Virus record (IMG/VR): IMGVR_UViG_3300010367_000378
Span: 1-21,635 of that record
Origin: a virus
Direction: 5' to 3' (one strand)
Length of the DNA stretch: 21,635 nt
Part shown: positions 4,144 through 19,213 of the stretch, piece after piece
How positions within the stretch are numbered: position 1 is the stretch's first letter
How the letters are laid out: the number at the start of each line of letters is the position of its first letter
Program-made: the position numbers and the translations under genes
The notes under the pieces: model-generated
Seen by the model: the letters and a program-made list of their open reading frames with translations, nothing else
The model's database searches: none
Told to the model about the DNA's origin: nothing

Positions 4144-5052
4144 CTATGGGGTCGAGACCCACGATGACAGCGCCGCCGCCCCCGCGGCGCGGAGACGATC
4201 GATCCGCTCCGGCCGGGCCCGGAAGTCGAGGGCGCTCTCATCGCCGACGTCGATCCGGATGATGCGCTGCCAGAGCTCCTTCGGGACGAAGGCCTGGTTG
4301 GCGACCGCCCGCAACATCGTGGCGTTGGCCACCAGGATCTCCGGCAGCCGCGGACGTAGCGGGCGAACCGCGACGTCTCCGCCGGCGTCTTCGATCTCCC
4401 GGTGGGAGTCCAGGCGCACGCCGAGGACCTGGTCGCAGGGCAGGCCGGAGAAGATCGAGAGCGGGTGGTTCATGGCCACGCCGCCGTCGCAATGCCACCA
4501 GCCGTCGACCTGGACAGGGGGCCAGAACAACGGCACGGCCATGCTCGCGAGCACCGCATCCGCCACCGGCACCTCGGGCGTGTCCTCGGTGGAGAAGACG
4601 TGGGGCTGAGCGTCGGCCGCGGCGCCGCGGCGCAGGTAGCGGGTGGCGGCGACGTAGAGGTGGTGGCCGGTCCGGCGGTGCAGCCCGTGGAAGGTCAGGT
4701 CCTCGGGGAATCCCGCCTCGAGGAGACGCTCGACGATCCAACGCCGGGCGAAGTCGATCGAGTGCCAGCCGCCGCTGAATGCGAGGCGCAAGACCGCCGG
4801 CGGGTGGTAGGCGGCGAACTCCGCCCAGGGGGTGGCCTCCTGGATCTGGCGCACGTGCGCCGCCGGCGCGCCGATCGCCCGCAGCATCGCGGTGATCGCC
4901 CCGGCCGAGGCGCCGGCGTGGTGGATGACGGGGAGCTCCCACTCCTCCAGCGCTTCGATGATGGGCCCATAGGCTTGGCCGAGGAACCCACCGCCCTCCC
5001 AGGCCTCGGCAGTGACCTGGGCCAGCTTCTCAGGGACGGAGGATTGCAGCAT
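4144..5052 (-). CDS. Patatin-like phospholipase (302 aa)
   Basis: Oxyanion loop EGGGFLG, nucleophile elbow GASAG, ASMAVPLFWPP and catalytic DGG all occur in canonical order. Confidence 0.93.
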   Translation of the reverse strand: MLQSSVPEKLAQVTAEAWEGGGFLGQAYGPIIEALEEWELPVIHHAGASAGAITAMLRAIGAPAAHVRQIQEATPWAEFAAYHPPAVLRLAFSGGWHSIDFARRWIVERLLEAGFPEDLTFHGLHRRTGHHLYVAATRYLRRGAAADAQPHVFSTEDTPEVPVADAVLASMAVPLFWPPVQVDGWWHCDGGVAMNHPLSIFSGLPCDQVLGVRLDSHREIEDAGGDVAVRPLRPRLPEILVANATMLRAVANQAFVPKELWQRIIRIDVGDESALDFRARPERIDRLRAAGAAALSSWVSTP

Positions 5053-12353: not shown

Positions 12354-12971
12354 TCAGTCCCTCCCCCCGCCGGCCAGACCGAGCGCCGCGGTCAGCATCC
12401 GGGCGAGCTGCACCGTGGCGCGGACGTCGGCCAGCGCGTCGTGCGCCTCCTCGGCCGGGAGGTCGATGCCCAGCCACTCGCAGAGCGTCCCGAGCTTGTG
12501 GTTGGCGGGCGGGTTGGGGGCGCCGAGGGTCAACCAGCGCGCCAGGTTCAGGGTGCAGAGCGGCTCGAAACACGCCGCTGGACAGAAGACCCCGGCACGC
12601 TTGAACCAGGCCGCCAGGAAGCCGCTGTCGAAGGGGGCGTTGTGGGCGCAGATGCGCGCCACGGTGTAGGGCTTCTTCTGGGCCGAGATCTTGGAGACGG
12701 TCGCATGCCGGCGGAAGAACTGCGCGATCCAGTCCAGGGCCCGGCTCTCAGCGACAGCCTCGGTCGCCCACACCTCGGGGTTGTAGTGGTTCACCTCGAG
12801 CGCCTTGGGATCGGCGGTCTTGGGGTCGAACTTGATCTTGAGCTCCATCGACTCGACCTCCCCCCAGAGCCCGTCGCAAGCGATGGCCGCGAACTGGATC
12901 ACGGGGTGGCGATTGGGGTCGAGGCCTCCTGTCTCGACGTCGAACACGACGATGCGCTCGTTCAGATCCAT
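12354..12971 (-). CDS. DEDDh 3'-5' exonuclease (DnaQ/Pol III epsilon-like)
   Basis: ExoI VFDVETGG, ExoII AHNAPFD, ExoIII AHDALAD. Confidence 0.93.
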   Translation of the reverse strand: MDLNERIVVFDVETGGLDPNRHPVIQFAAIACDGLWGEVESMELKIKFDPKTADPKALEVNHYNPEVWATEAVAESRALDWIAQFFRRHATVSKISAQKKPYTVARICAHNAPFDSGFLAAWFKRAGVFCPAACFEPLCTLNLARWLTLGAPNPPANHKLGTLCEWLGIDLPAEEAHDALADVRATVQLARMLTAALGLAGGGRD

Positions 12972-13116
12972 AGCTTCGGGTTCCTTCCTGCCGGGCCCGT
13001 TGGAAGATCGCCGCCCCGACGGGGACCCGGCCGGCTGCCGGGGGCGGCTTCATGCTGGTGGACCGCGGGCTCCTCAACCCGCGGCTGGAAACTCTACCTC
13101 TGTCGGAGTCGCTGGA

Positions 13117-14106
13117 TCAGTTCCCCAGGGCTCCATAGTCAAGCCCCCGCTTCACCTCCACAGCTCGCAGGTAGGCGTAGCGCACCACCGGCGCCGGCGC
13201 CGCCTCGATTAGGGGGCGCAGGGCCCGCTGCGCCGGCGACAGGCCGCCCATCACCGATAGTACCCATGCCTTCACCTGGTCCGCGGGGACGGCGGCCGGG
13301 TTCGAAGGGCCGGGCGCCTCCCCTGAAGCACAGCGCGCAGCGATCACCGCGGTGGCGAAGGCCTCGTCGAGCGCTTTGTCCTCCCAGACCAGAGCACCGC
13401 TCACCAGCGTCTTGACGGCGTCGGGGACCGCGGGCGCGGTGAAGAAGTAGGTGGTGAGGTGCGTGCGGATGGTGACCGTGGCCGGCATCTGCGCCGGCAA
13501 CGTCTCGCAGGTGCGAGGGTTGGGTGTGACGCAGGCGCAGAGACAGAGGGGGGTCTTCCCCGGCGGACATCCGACGTTCCCATCCTGAGCACCGGCCACC
13601 GCGGCGAGGGTGAAGAAGGCGGCCAAGACCGGAAACACCTTCCCGTAGCGCGCCGCTGGAGTGAGGAGGCGCCAGAGCCATTCCGACCACCCGCAGAGGA
13701 CCGCGAAGTTGTGGTCGAAGGCGCCGTCGTGGTGCATAGCATGCCGCTGCGGCGTCAGGAAAATGCGCGCCATCTGGAGCGGCCTGAAGATGAGCACCGG
13801 GCGATGGGAGAGGGCGTGGGAGACCTGAGTAAGTCCGATCCCGAGCCCCAGGGTCACCAGGAAGGGCGAGCGCAGGAGGAGGCCGCCCAGGAGAATCGGC
13901 CCACCAGCGAGCCAGGGAGCCAGTAAGTTGGTAGGCGTCAGGAACTTCCCCGGGTTGCGGTGGTGCTCCTGAAAGTCCCGCGCGATCCGCCTGATCAGGC
14001 TTCCATCCCCGCCCTTGATCTTGTCGAAGACGACGTGCCAGACCAGCCCCAGGAAGTCGGCGCAGAACCAGGCGAAGAGGACCTCGGCGAGCCGTACCAT
14101 CGTCAT
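13117..14106 (-). CDS. CarF/TMEM189(PEDS1)/FAD4-family lipid desaturase-like domain fused to a signal-peptide-like segment and Cys-rich domain (329 aa)
   Basis: ATGA overlap at 14103-14106. ADFLGLVWH...D, FQEHHRNP, QVSHALSH and LQ..RIFL.PQRHAMHH...F...CGW give 8 His in family order, separated by hydrophobic segments. Confidence 0.82.
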   Translation of the reverse strand: MTMVRLAEVLFAWFCADFLGLVWHVVFDKIKGGDGSLIRRIARDFQEHHRNPGKFLTPTNLLAPWLAGGPILLGGLLLRSPFLVTLGLGIGLTQVSHALSHRPVLIFRPLQMARIFLTPQRHAMHHDGAFDHNFAVLCGWSEWLWRLLTPAARYGKVFPVLAAFFTLAAVAGAQDGNVGCPPGKTPLCLCACVTPNPRTCETLPAQMPATVTIRTHLTTYFFTAPAVPDAVKTLVSGALVWEDKALDEAFATAVIAARCASGEAPGPSNPAAVPADQVKAWVLSVMGGLSPAQRALRPLIEAAPAPVVRYAYLRAVEVKRGLDYGALGN

Positions 14107-15020
14107 CGCCCTCCAGCCTTGGGCCAGCGGGTAATCCGACCGGGCCCGCCGGGGCACGCCGGCGGCGTGCCGTAGGCGGTGGTGATCTGCTGCTTCGCGT
14201 TGGGAGGCGCCACGCCCTCGGGGAGGCCGTAGGTCACCACCCCGCTGGCATAATCGGCGCAGACCCACGGGCTCGGCTGACCCATCTTGTCGACCGTCTC
14301 GAAGTGGGCGACGTGCCCCTTGGGGCCCCGCTCGAGCACGAGCTGGTTCTTGAGGGGGAGGAGATCGCCGGCCGTGCCGCTGCGGATCTCGCTCAGGATC
14401 GTCGGCCAGGCCTTCGCCCAGGTCTCCCCCCGCTTCCAGGCCGTCTCGATCTGCATCAGGGCGTAGAGCCCCAGCCAGTCGGGCGAGGTCTCGATCATCT
14501 TGGGCAGGCGGATCGGCCGCTTCGCGAGCGCCGGCTCGGCCCCGTGGTCCAGCCAGGCGAAGGTGGTAGTGACCTGCTTTCGCTGGTCGCTGTCGTCGCT
14601 GAAGCGCGCGCCGAGGCCGGTGACGAGACTCCAGTCAGGTAGGGCGAGGAGCCGGGCAGCGACGAGGTTCCCCTGCCAGCTCTTCGTGAGGGCTTGGACC
14701 ACGCGCTGGTCCCCGGCGCGCATGCCGAAGAACAGGAGTGGGCCCCGGGCGGCGCCGAAGTGCCCCCAGTGGCTCTTCGAGAACAGGGCTTCGTCCGTCC
14801 CGCCCTTGGCCTGGTCCCCGACGAGCTTGACGTCGCCGTACCACTGCACGATGAGATCCGAGACGGAGGGCAGGTGCTGACCTGCCCAGGCGGCGAGCTG
14901 CTGCTCGCAGTGGTTCGGGGTGGCTCCCGATGTCCAGTCGGGCTTCACCACCACCGGCGGACCCCCGGCGGGGGTGTTCATCCAGCGGTAGGTGGGGGCT
15001 GCGTAGTCGTCTCCCATCAT
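14103..15020 (-). CDS. Hypothetical Trp/Gly-rich protein (305 aa)
   Basis: SD AAAGGAG; long ORF with GC-rich third positions; no motif recognised. Confidence 0.85.
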   Translation of the reverse strand: MMGDDYAAPTYRWMNTPAGGPPVVVKPDWTSGATPNHCEQQLAAWAGQHLPSVSDLIVQWYGDVKLVGDQAKGGTDEALFSKSHWGHFGAARGPLLFFGMRAGDQRVVQALTKSWQGNLVAARLLALPDWSLVTGLGARFSDDSDQRKQVTTTFAWLDHGAEPALAKRPIRLPKMIETSPDWLGLYALMQIETAWKRGETWAKAWPTILSEIRSGTAGDLLPLKNQLVLERGPKGHVAHFETVDKMGQPSPWVCADYASGVVTYGLPEGVAPPNAKQQITTAYGTPPACPGGPGRITRWPKAGGR

Positions 15021-16489: not shown

Positions 16490-17647
16490 CTACTCCTTCT
16501 TCCCCTTGAGGTCCCGGATGGCCGTGAGCGCCCGGGTGTAGAGGCCGTTCTGTGCCTCGCCCGGTTCCCCCTCGAAGTCGGCGAGCGGCGCGCCGAGCTT
16601 GGCGACGACCGCCTCCTCCTGGACGGGAGGGCTGTTCTTCATCAGGGCCCGGAGCTTCGCGATGTTCTCCTCGGTCAGCTTCGGCCGCGGGCCACCACCA
16701 GCTTCCTGCTGGCCGGAGCTTTCGGCCGCCGCGGCAGCAGCCGTAACGTCGACCACAGGGCCTGCTTCTTCACCCCGAGGCTCGGGGATGCCGCTGTCGG
16801 CCGCTCGCATGTCGTCAGGGAGAGCTGATACATCGATGGGTGCGGAAGAGAGGGCGGCCGACGCCTGAGCGCCGCCAGCGAAGGCGTCAAGGGTCGAGGG
16901 GATACGGGGGAGCGCTCGCGCTTCGTCTTCGACAATCCGCTCGAGGTCCTCGATGGTCTTCACGCCGAGCACGACCTCCGGACACCAGCGGCGCGCCCAA
17001 TGGAGGACCCCGGTGTAGAGGAGCTTCTGGTCCGGATCGGCCGCCCACATCTTGTTGTCGGTCTTCACCTTGTCCCAGACGATCGTGTCCACTCGCTCCA
17101 CCGGGTCTCCCTTGAATCGACCGCGGATGGTGATCTGGCGGGTCTTCCCCTCACCGCTCCACTCGAAATCCAGGCGCTTCTCGAGGCCGGCGAGCTCGTT
17201 GACGACGGCCAGAACCAGCTTCCCCTGGAAGGCCAGCTTGCCGCCGACCACGTAGGTCTCAGGCGCCACCGCGAAGGGAGACATCCCCCAGCGGACTGAC
17301 TGCTCCACAACGAGGAAGCAGTTGGCGATCGTGCGCTTCTTCGCCTCGGCCATGCCGGCGCGGAACTCGTCGGCGCCGAGCTTGTCGCGGGTCTGCATCC
17401 GCTCGGCCGGCGACATCTTGTTCTTCGGGTCCCACCAAGGATGAGCGACCAGGTGGTCCGGGAGAATCGACGCCTCGGACATCGACAGAGCGATGCGTTG
17501 CATCTGTTCGAACATGCCTGTGTCGAGGATCTGGGTGTCGGAGACGACGACGCGGACTTCCTTCGCCGGACGAGGCGCCAGGGCTGCAGGCGGGGCGGCC
17601 GGCGGTGCATCGGCGTTCGGAGCGGGGGCGGTGATCGGTTCGGTCAT
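16490..17647 (-). CDS. recT: RecT-family single-strand annealing protein (385 aa)
   Basis: NCFLVVEQSVRWGMSPFAVA..TYVVGGKLAF and W.ADPDQKLLY....WARRWCPEVVLGV match the phage RecT-like pattern; adjacent to the YqaJ nuclease. Confidence 0.85.
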   Translation of the reverse strand: MTEPITAPAPNADAPPAAPPAALAPRPAKEVRVVVSDTQILDTGMFEQMQRIALSMSEASILPDHLVAHPWWDPKNKMSPAERMQTRDKLGADEFRAGMAEAKKRTIANCFLVVEQSVRWGMSPFAVAPETYVVGGKLAFQGKLVLAVVNELAGLEKRLDFEWSGEGKTRQITIRGRFKGDPVERVDTIVWDKVKTDNKMWAADPDQKLLYTGVLHWARRWCPEVVLGVKTIEDLERIVEDEARALPRIPSTLDAFAGGAQASAALSSAPIDVSALPDDMRAADSGIPEPRGEEAGPVVDVTAAAAAAESSGQQEAGGGPRPKLTEENIAKLRALMKNSPPVQEEAVVAKLGAPLADFEGEPGEAQNGLYTRALTAIRDLKGKKE

Positions 17648-17651
17648 GTTC

Positions 17652-18632
17652 CTATTTCCTCTTCGCTGAGTGGGTTAGCAGAAAGCCCCGGTAAGGGGCA
17701 CGGTTGTAGCCTTCGACCCAGGTCTCCTCGACTTCGCCACACCAGAGGGCGTAGCCGCCGTCGAAGAGCGCACGCTCGGCATCGCCCACCAGGTGGCGGA
17801 TCTGGGCGCCGAGCCCCTTCTTCTCCTTCTCCGCCCCCTTCTCCCGCTTGCGGGCGTCGTCGTAGGCCAGGGCCAGGGCCAGGGCTTCGGAGTTGCCACG
17901 GAGGTCGACGACGGACCCCGGGCGGACATGGCCGAGCAGGGCGGCCACCGTGTCGGCATCCAGCTCCCAATTCGGATCTGGCGGCGTGCCGGCGTCGATC
18001 GACTCCCAGAACGCCTGGACCTCCTGCTCGATCCTGGCGATCACCCCGGGGTGTCGGTCGATCCGGTAGAGGTGGAGCTCGTTGCCACCGACGAGCGGCG
18101 CGGCGATCCCGGAGGGAAGGCCCGTGCAGGCCATCTGCGCCTGCACCTGGAGCTTGATCCGGAACGGAGGCTGACGCTCCGCTTCCACCCATTCCCCCTT
18201 CTTCCACCACCAGACACCCGGTTCGACGCGCTCCGGCCAGCGCCGGAACATGAGCCGGTCCACGTTCTTGATTTCCAGAACTGCGTCATGGGCGCCGGCC
18301 TGCACTTCGAAGTCGGTGGTGGAAGACATACCGCGCAGGGTAGGGTGCTCAACGAAGCCGCCGGGCTTCACTTTCCAGCCGGTGAGCTGCGCCACGCCGT
18401 GAGCGATCGCCGCCTCGAGGACGTTGCCCCAGAACTTCCGGTCCGAAAGGGTGGCGGCGCTCTCCTCTTGGGGTTTGAGCCGGCCGGCCTTGCGCATCCA
18501 GAGGCCGTACCTTGTCTCGAAGGGGTCGAGGTCATCGGGAGCGGCGCCTTCGTCGAGCCAGGCAGCGGAAAAAAGCGCCGGGACTTCGGACGCGCCGATG
18601 TTGTGGGCGCGCCGGGGATCGAGGTGTGTCAT
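17652..18632 (-). CDS. YqaJ-family (lambda exonuclease-like) viral recombination nuclease (326 aa)
   Basis: ATG at 18632 (ATGA overlap); IGASE, GNVLE, SSTTD, LEIKN and QVQAQM motifs. Confidence 0.9.
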   Translation of the reverse strand: MTHLDPRRAHNIGASEVPALFSAAWLDEGAAPDDLDPFETRYGLWMRKAGRLKPQEESAATLSDRKFWGNVLEAAIAHGVAQLTGWKVKPGGFVEHPTLRGMSSTTDFEVQAGAHDAVLEIKNVDRLMFRRWPERVEPGVWWWKKGEWVEAERQPPFRIKLQVQAQMACTGLPSGIAAPLVGGNELHLYRIDRHPGVIARIEQEVQAFWESIDAGTPPDPNWELDADTVAALLGHVRPGSVVDLRGNSEALALALAYDDARKREKGAEKEKKGLGAQIRHLVGDAERALFDGGYALWCGEVEETWVEGYNRAPYRGFLLTHSAKRK

Positions 18633-19213
18633 GCAGCTTCCTCCTCCTCCCTTCTGAGGGCTGCCACCCGCCGGTTGCGCAGCGCGAGCTCGCGGTAGGG
18701 ACAGCCCTCGGGGTGGGTCATGGGGTCGGCCGCCGTGGTGTCCGGCGGAGGCGGATCGCACTCGCAGAGGTCGAAGGGGGGCTCGTCCGTGCACGCCGAG
18801 CAGAGTCCCGGGGAGATCCAGTAGCAGGGCTCCCCGGTGAGTTCGACGCATTCCATGCAGTTGTCGTCGGTGCAGCCGCATCCCCGGCAGACGTCGCCGT
18901 AGAGGGAGCGAAACTCGATCCGGATGCCGAGCTCCCGGGCCGCGGCCATCCCCAGCTTCATGCCCTCGGAGATCCCGAGGTCGGTGTAGACCACGGAGGC
19001 CTCGCAGACGGGGAGGAACGCCTGGCCGGCGGCGATCCCCAGGGCGCGCTCCTCGGGCTTGTCGTCGTCGAGCACGCCGGGTTGGGTGTAGAGGAGGTGG
19101 GAGGCGTAGGGAGCCTCCCCTCGACCAATGCTGTCGTGCATGCACTCCCGGGCATAGGCGAGGTTCTCCTCGACGTTGCCCGAGTAGGGGCTCTCCAGGA
19201 AGACGCGACGCAT
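18629..19213 (-). CDS. Nucleoside 2-deoxyribosyltransferase-like (DUF1937/DUF4406-related) domain plus C-terminal Cys-rich Zn finger (194 aa)
   Basis: VFLESPYSG...APYASHLLY...CEASVVYTDLGISEGM followed by CRGCGCTDDNCMEC...CYW...LCSAC. Confidence 0.75.
   Translation of the reverse strand: MRRVFLESPYSGNVEENLAYARECMHDSIGRGEAPYASHLLYTQPGVLDDDKPEERALGIAAGQAFLPVCEASVVYTDLGISEGMKLGMAAARELGIRIEFRSLYGDVCRGCGCTDDNCMECVELTGEPCYWISPGLCSACTDEPPFDLCECDPPPPDTTAADPMTHPEGCPYRELALRNRRVAALRREEEEAA

Follow-up and report, generated by a model that had tools for sequence, protein, structure and literature searches.

The window, that is, the whole 21,635-nucleotide stretch of DNA analysed here, represents the first 21.6 kb of an 87.9-kb linear IMG/VR contig. 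On its minus strand lies a gene whose product joins a small membrane domain of the lipid desaturase type to a C-terminal, predicted exported domain (Table 1). The contig is that of an uncultured soil tailed phage, since the genes of the record include those for the large terminase, portal, major head and minor tail proteins. The genes that surround the desaturase-fusion gene encode RecE/YqaJ-like, RecT-like and DnaQ-like proteins and a ParB-methyltransferase, and their GC and GC3 values are uniform. A first-pass annotation, made from the letters of the window without database searches, had viewed the gene as truly viral and as part of a phage replication operon; both the recombination and exonuclease genes on its flanks and the structural genes of the wider contig bear this out.

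Table 1. Features of the desaturase-fusion gene and its neighbourhood (positions in the window; nt, nucleotides; aa, amino acids)
Feature	Position	Strand	Remarks
Patatin-like phospholipase gene	4144-5052	(-)	PF01734, 89.7 bits
DnaQ/RNase T-like exonuclease gene, downstream	12354..12971	(-)	Same strand, 145-nt gap
GC-rich hairpin	13063-13084	(-)	CCGCGGG, 8-nt loop, CCCGCGG
Desaturase-fusion gene	13117..14106	(-)	329 aa from ATG 14106; stop TGA 13119-13117
Exported domain (predicted), residues 176-329	13120..13581	(-)	6 Cys, then helical bundle
Fourth hydrophobic helix, signal-peptide-like, residues 153-175	13582..13650	(-)	RYGK, hydrophobic core, AGA|QD
Minimal PF10520 (CarF/PEDS1/FAD4-type) membrane domain, putatively di-metal, residues 1-148	13663..14106	(-)	Pfam, alignments, AlphaFold model
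Upstream gene, translationally coupled to the desaturase-fusion gene	14103..15020	(-)	305 aa; no family match
Shine-Dalgarno GGAGG	14110..14114	(-)	3 nt ahead of ATG 14106, 9 nt ahead of ATG 14100
RecT-like annealing protein	16490-17647	(-)	Upstream, same gene array
RecE/YqaJ-like exonuclease	17652-19145	(-)	Upstream, same gene array (RecT and RecE together span 16490..19145)

Residues are numbered throughout from the ATG at 14106. An alternative ATG at 14100, which yields a protein of 327 aa and coincides with the start of the public gene call (P0002), is better placed and appears to be the likelier start, because the GGAGG lies 9 nt ahead of it. Whichever ATG is used, the gene is coupled to its upstream neighbour, as the annotation had proposed, because the TGA of the latter (14105-14103) overlaps ATG 14106 and ends 2 nt ahead of ATG 14100. 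No promoter-like or terminator-like site was found between the two genes, and the GC3 of the desaturase gene (0.84) is similar to that of the adjoining phage genes. The product of the upstream gene matches no Pfam or PHROGs family and has no informative relatives. The hairpin listed in Table 1 begins 33 nt past the desaturase stop codon, within the gap ahead of the exonuclease gene, and lacks a T-run. The phage has a second lipid-acting enzyme in the patatin-like phospholipase, whose gene belongs to the same array and is separated from the desaturase gene by about 8 kb.

It is extremely improbable that the gene is cellular and that the contig, wrongly classified or chimeric, includes host DNA. 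The CheckV completeness of the record is just 81% and the record is linear, which would leave some room for such an error. Against this, the gene sits in a tightly packed co-directional block between the phage RecT/RecE-like and exonuclease genes, and the structural module, although more than 50 kb away, is on the same contig, with uniform GC. Moreover, relatives of the gene adjoin terminases in other viral contigs, and a pattern scan (profile A5) of 185,579 species genomes revealed no close relative of the protein. As for the lineage of the phage, a megablast search with 11.6 kb of the contig against 50,697 phage records gave no match. The nearest isolate by major head protein (G000 69429-70673, minus strand) is Tunturi_4, a phage of Tunturiibacter (Acidobacteriota), at 32.6% identity, and the nearest by terminase is a Bradyrhizobium phage at 29% identity. 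Assignment of a host from either isolate was rejected, these identities being too distant. The Tunturi_4 genome measures 88 kb, the same size class as the present phage, a weak hint on lineage or host.

The N-terminal part of the protein was assessed first with family profiles. The annotation had assigned positions 13663-14106 to a Lipid_desat-type domain, and the Pfam profile of that family (PF10520) indeed recognizes residues 13-143 with 41.6 bits, above its gathering cut-off of 26.4 (E 1.7e-10, profile positions 1-149 of 175); a six-frame search with the same profile scored 40.7 bits. The FA_hydroxylase profile (PF04116), from a related superfamily, narrowly missed its cut-off of 31 bits, with a score of 29.4 over residues 10-144. 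The protein has no family in PHROGs and no Pfam match to FA_desaturase (PF00487), which we take to be the family of the classical acyl-lipid desaturases that cyanophages carry (vFAD). As judged from its sequence, the protein is thus a member of PF10520.

All eight family His residues occur in the protein (positions 24, 48, 49, 97, 101, 122, 125 and 126), in the arrangement H...HH...HxxxH...HxxHH that the family requires, together with a non-conserved His132. The positions and contexts listed by the annotation were all found at the quoted sites, save for one miscounted dot in the first motif, which is immaterial. Exhaustive phmmer comparison with 1.84 billion cluster representatives yielded 146 matches; when the 65 that match the N-terminal domain were aligned, the invariant columns were exactly H24, D28, H48, H49, H97, H101, H122, H125 and H126. 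A broader alignment of 190 sequences to one profile (hmmalign), which includes seven CarF-like genes from Myxococcota genomes (243-345 bits with the NCBIfam model NF045946), shows that the eight His residues, D17, D28, F45, Q111 and G139 are conserved in every group; the exceptions are gaps in fragments and a few rows that differ at F45, Q111 or G139.

These positions can be compared with the characterised enzymes. None of CarF, human TMEM189 and mouse PEDS1 can do without the eight His residues (PMC9131029, PMC8960569). In mouse PEDS1, Asp100, four residues past His96, is also essential, and replacement of Phe118, three residues ahead of His121/His122, by Ala leaves 6% activity (PMC8960569). 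The spacing of D28 and F45 in the phage protein matches that of the mouse Asp100 and Phe118. The order of the eight His and the class of their spacing are those of CarF/PEDS1 (TMEM189), as are the Asp four past the first His and the Phe three before the HH. The phage protein differs in size (a domain of about 150 residues with three helices, versus about 270-280 aa and four helices), in being phage-encoded and fused to an exported domain, and in carrying Pro58 where CarF/PEDS1 has a ninth His.

The last of these differences bears directly on function. The ninth His (H113 of CarF, H131 of mouse PEDS1) is specific to the PEDS1 branch and is needed for PEDS1 function (PMC9131029, PMC8960569). The corresponding column, nine residues past H49, is His in six of the seven Myxococcota CarF-like proteins, and Phe in four of six viral relatives. 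NF045946, the equivalog model for CarF/PEDS1, scores the phage protein at 17.7 bits against a cut-off of 500. Because of Pro58 at the ninth-His column and the NF045946 score far under the cut-off, the protein is not a plasmalogen desaturase, and vinyl-ether desaturation was ruled out on these two grounds together with the position of the protein outside the CarF-like clade (see below); the doubt that the annotation had expressed, from the Pro alone, was well placed. Plant FAD4, a delta-3-trans desaturase of the sn-2 palmitate of phosphatidylglycerol, shares the Pfam family and the eight-His motif, again without the PEDS1 ninth His (PMC9131029, PMC8960569). FAD4, of about 320 aa, resides in the chloroplast and is likened to the phage protein through family and motif only.

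The AlphaFold2 model of the N-terminal domain, built on the 65-sequence alignment, is all-helical and confident (pLDDT 92.2, pTM 0.86). Among 48,161 chains compared by VIA-align, the hydroxylase domain of yeast Scs7p ranked at the top (Z 7.6, alignment of 148 of 160 residues), well ahead of the next unrelated row at 4.7; mouse SCD1 reached Z 4.2 over 131 residues. Foldseek against the PDB gave only weak matches, to Scs7p (E 0.7), and a profile search of the PDB sequences found no PF10520 relative, i.e., no solved structure of the family. In BFVD the top match was a Harvfovirus "lipid desaturase domain" protein (TM 0.72, probability 1.0). The predicted fold is that of the membrane di-metal desaturases and hydroxylases, in line with the family-type structure expected from the annotation. 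The best solved matches, Scs7p (a sphingolipid alpha-hydroxylase, 4ZR1) and SCD1 (4YMK), are di-metal His-rich membrane enzymes that cover nearly the whole domain; they share only 12-14% identity with it, have another arrangement of His boxes and are larger, with four helices and cap domains. The giant-virus PF10520 proteins (e.g., Harvfovirus A0A3G5A308) are viral and have the same predicted fold, but they belong to viruses of eukaryotes, measure about 200-220 aa, bear an N-terminal extension and fall outside the clade of the phage protein.

The domain has only three transmembrane helices, at about residues 5-27, 60-78 and 80-100, and two loops (27-58 and 100-154) hold all eight His residues, D28 and F45. 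Since both loops are rich in Lys and Arg, they presumably lie at the cytoplasmic face. For CarF, a topology of four transmembrane helices with all His cytoplasmic was shown experimentally, and CarF/PEDS1 have about 70 more residues ahead of the first His (PMC9131029, PMC8960569). The phage protein departs from this topology in that its counterpart of the CarF/PEDS1 helix ahead of the first His box is missing. In-frame stops just upstream of several relatives confirm that the shortness of the N-terminus is genuine. Without the first transmembrane helix of CarF/PEDS1, the protein may have only part of the substrate tunnel, or a very different one.

The relationship to the hydroxylases raises the question of the reaction. 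An active di-iron enzyme that is instead a hydroxylase or other oxidase, or that acts on a non-phospholipid substrate (ornithine lipid, hopanoid, carotenoid, quinone or lipid A acyl chain), would be in keeping with the PF04116 near miss, with Scs7p rather than SCD1 as the best solved match and with the distance of the small phage-type proteins from both characterised branches of the family. We consider this reading rather unlikely, for the protein conforms to PF10520 both in its His spacing (H-x3-D, HH, H-x3-H, H-x2-HH) and in its Asp/Phe pair, the PF10520 profile outscores PF04116 by 12 bits, and the characterised PF10520 members are all desaturases of intact glycerolipids, both branches acting near the glycerol backbone (PMC9131029, PMC8960569).

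Relatives of the N-terminal domain were sought in viral and cellular sequences. A tblastn search of phage records with the protein gave one match only, a 595-kb uncultured huge phage with a small homologue. Pattern scans of IMG/VR added small homologues of 145-162 aa on four other phage-like contigs, two of which have a terminase nearby, and a 203-aa homologue on one giant-virus MAG (L019). Together with a 177-kb phage-like contig and the giant-virus proteins of BFVD, these make up the viral relatives, and at least six of the small proteins are on other viral contigs. In a tree of 181 sequences (FastTree, midpoint-rooted, composed without eukaryotic sequences), the phage protein belongs to a clade of 21 members (support 0.94), 142-208 aa in length, among which are those of the four phage-like IMG/VR contigs. 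The nearest neighbour of the phage protein (P0022) is encoded on the 177-kb phage-like contig, with a terminase 1.6 kb away. A separate clade, of 11 members, comprises the CarF-like sequences, so that the comparison with CarF-like and viral homologues suggested in the annotation sets the protein apart in a "mini" clade.

At four other loci the mini desaturase adjoins, or lies less than 1 kb from, a conserved papain-like protein of about 280 aa (L047:8438-9268, L011:1154-2002, L016:9133-9963 and L017:6766-7653) with the motifs Q..G.CW, H and NSWG..WG; the one in L047 scores 24.1 bits with PF00112. No such neighbour was found in the present phage, and its upstream 305-aa gene was rejected as a conserved partner, being unrelated to the papain-like protein of the other phages.

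The remainder of the protein has relatives of its own. Residues 153-175 align with the signal peptides of stand-alone homologues of the C-terminal domain, and the fourth hydrophobic helix extends over residues 155-173. Matches to residues 160-329 form a separate protein set of 17 cluster representatives, mostly of 150-200 aa; nearly all begin with a signal peptide and they occur in other phages. The domain has Cys residues at positions 180, 188, 190, 192, 200 and 259, four of them conserved, and its helical bundle carries the motif ARC.SG..PGP..P..VPA..VKAW. Its model is confident (pLDDT 87). Neither the domain nor its 17 homologues match Pfam, and the domain found no match in the PDB by Foldseek or in the ESM Atlas by shape or by features; VIA-align gave a best Z of 4.5, to generic helical hairpins only. 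A stand-alone homologue with 58% identity (L002:1355-1927) is encoded on a distantly related phage contig, where it adjoins a ParB-methyltransferase and has a terminase near; three other genes of that contig are common to the present phage.

The two parts were found together in no other protein among the 1.84 billion cluster representatives, so the fusion is known from a single contig. The single reading frame could in principle be an artefact, in which the gene of a 150-aa mini desaturase became continuous with that of a secreted protein bearing a signal peptide of its own, either through an error of sequencing or assembly or because a stop codon had very recently been lost. This would explain why the gene is confined to one contig and why the junction (153-175) keeps a complete signal-peptide layout that aligns with the N-termini of the stand-alone homologues. 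We regard it as very unlikely: the region contains no stop, frameshift or N, the genes for the two parts are adjacent in none of the related loci examined, and a helix at the junction with its N-terminus inside and its C-terminus outside fits the topology of the three-helix domain. A separate second gene for the C-terminal domain was likewise rejected, as no internal ATG or ribosome-binding site was found for it.

A protein of 197 aa from the mini clade (P0020, metagenomic) also has a C-terminal extension, consisting of a hydrophobic stretch that ends in a lipobox-like ASGC and a short tail. Because of this extension, a fourth helix or exported tail seems to have been added to the mini enzyme more than once.

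The occurrence of the C-terminal domain on its own, secreted, in the distantly related phage and in 16 other cluster representatives, and the uniqueness of the fusion, would also suit a protein in which the desaturase-like part is catalytically dead and serves as a polytopic anchor or export vehicle for a functional periplasmic domain, for example in superinfection exclusion or envelope modification. All predicted metal ligands and both second-shell residues are kept, however, at an identity to relatives of only about 30-40%, which would be unexpected for a mere anchor, and other phages repeatedly carry mini proteins of this clade on their own, with no C-terminal domain. An inactive anchor is therefore unlikely.

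The explanation that we favour as a whole, at a probability of roughly 0.6, is a phage inner-membrane, di-iron, lipid-oxidising mini enzyme with a periplasmic C-terminal domain. The gene would be expressed within the recombination/replication gene array of the tailed phage, and its product would insert into the inner membrane. A di-iron centre is predicted at the cytoplasmic face of this membrane, liganded by the eight His residues with support from Asp28 and Phe45. With O2 and a host electron donor, the enzyme would oxidise a lipid of the host inner membrane near its head-group end, most likely by desaturation and possibly by hydroxylation. The fourth, signal-peptide-like helix would carry the C-terminal ~155 residues into the periplasm, where the Cys-containing domain would stay tethered or be freed by signal peptidase. 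A redox partner (cytochrome b5, Fer2 2Fe-2S ferredoxin, thioredoxin or AhpC/TSA peroxiredoxin) was not found in the 87.9-kb record. Phages of this kind probably modify the membrane lipids of their hosts chemically during infection.

A more far-reaching version may be entertained, tentatively. Several tailed-phage lineages might carry the smallest known membrane di-iron lipid desaturases, active and engaged in remodelling the host inner membrane, and in the present phage signal peptidase might cut at AGA|QD and free a disulfide-bonded periplasmic partner, which would make this a two-product gene. Taken as a whole, this version is possible but doubtful.

The CarF/PEDS1/FAD4 family itself is known, with two known activities, namely plasmalogen vinyl-ether formation and delta-3-trans desaturation of phosphatidylglycerol. 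What is new here is a minimal, three-helix, phage-associated variant, uniquely fused. The phage-borne clade, by keeping the whole predicted metal site in about 150 residues, would delimit the smallest catalytic core of the family and offer an attractive structural target. The annotation knew of no characterised bacteriophage member, and the literature searched contained none either: no paper pairs PF10520 with phages and no viral member of the family is characterised, the viral relatives described above being uncharacterised. The only characterised phage lipid desaturases in that literature are those of cyanophages (Roitman et al. 2018, PMC5776448), delta-9 lipid desaturases that are active auxiliary metabolic genes and are proposed to alter the host membrane during infection. 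They are phage-encoded membrane desaturases, as the protein described here probably is, but they belong to marine cyanomyoviruses and are neither minimal nor fused (PMC5776448). With the present gene, phage auxiliary metabolic genes would include lipid desaturases of two unrelated classes, the new one from soil phages rather than from marine cyanophages. Fusion through an internal signal peptide is an unusual architecture for a phage gene, and would tie a lipid enzyme of the cytoplasmic face to a periplasmic function.

In the same family we noted a tight group of four-helix paralogues of about 222 aa (L021-L038), from Polyangia, some Bacteroidota and one cyanobacterium, which lies outside the clade of the phage protein. 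The group is distinct from CarF, as a CarF-like gene (196 bits) and a paralogue of this type (96 bits) occur together in one Sandaracinus MAG. Coordinates noted with the group are G001:C7:56537-56974 and G001:C15:86960-87454.
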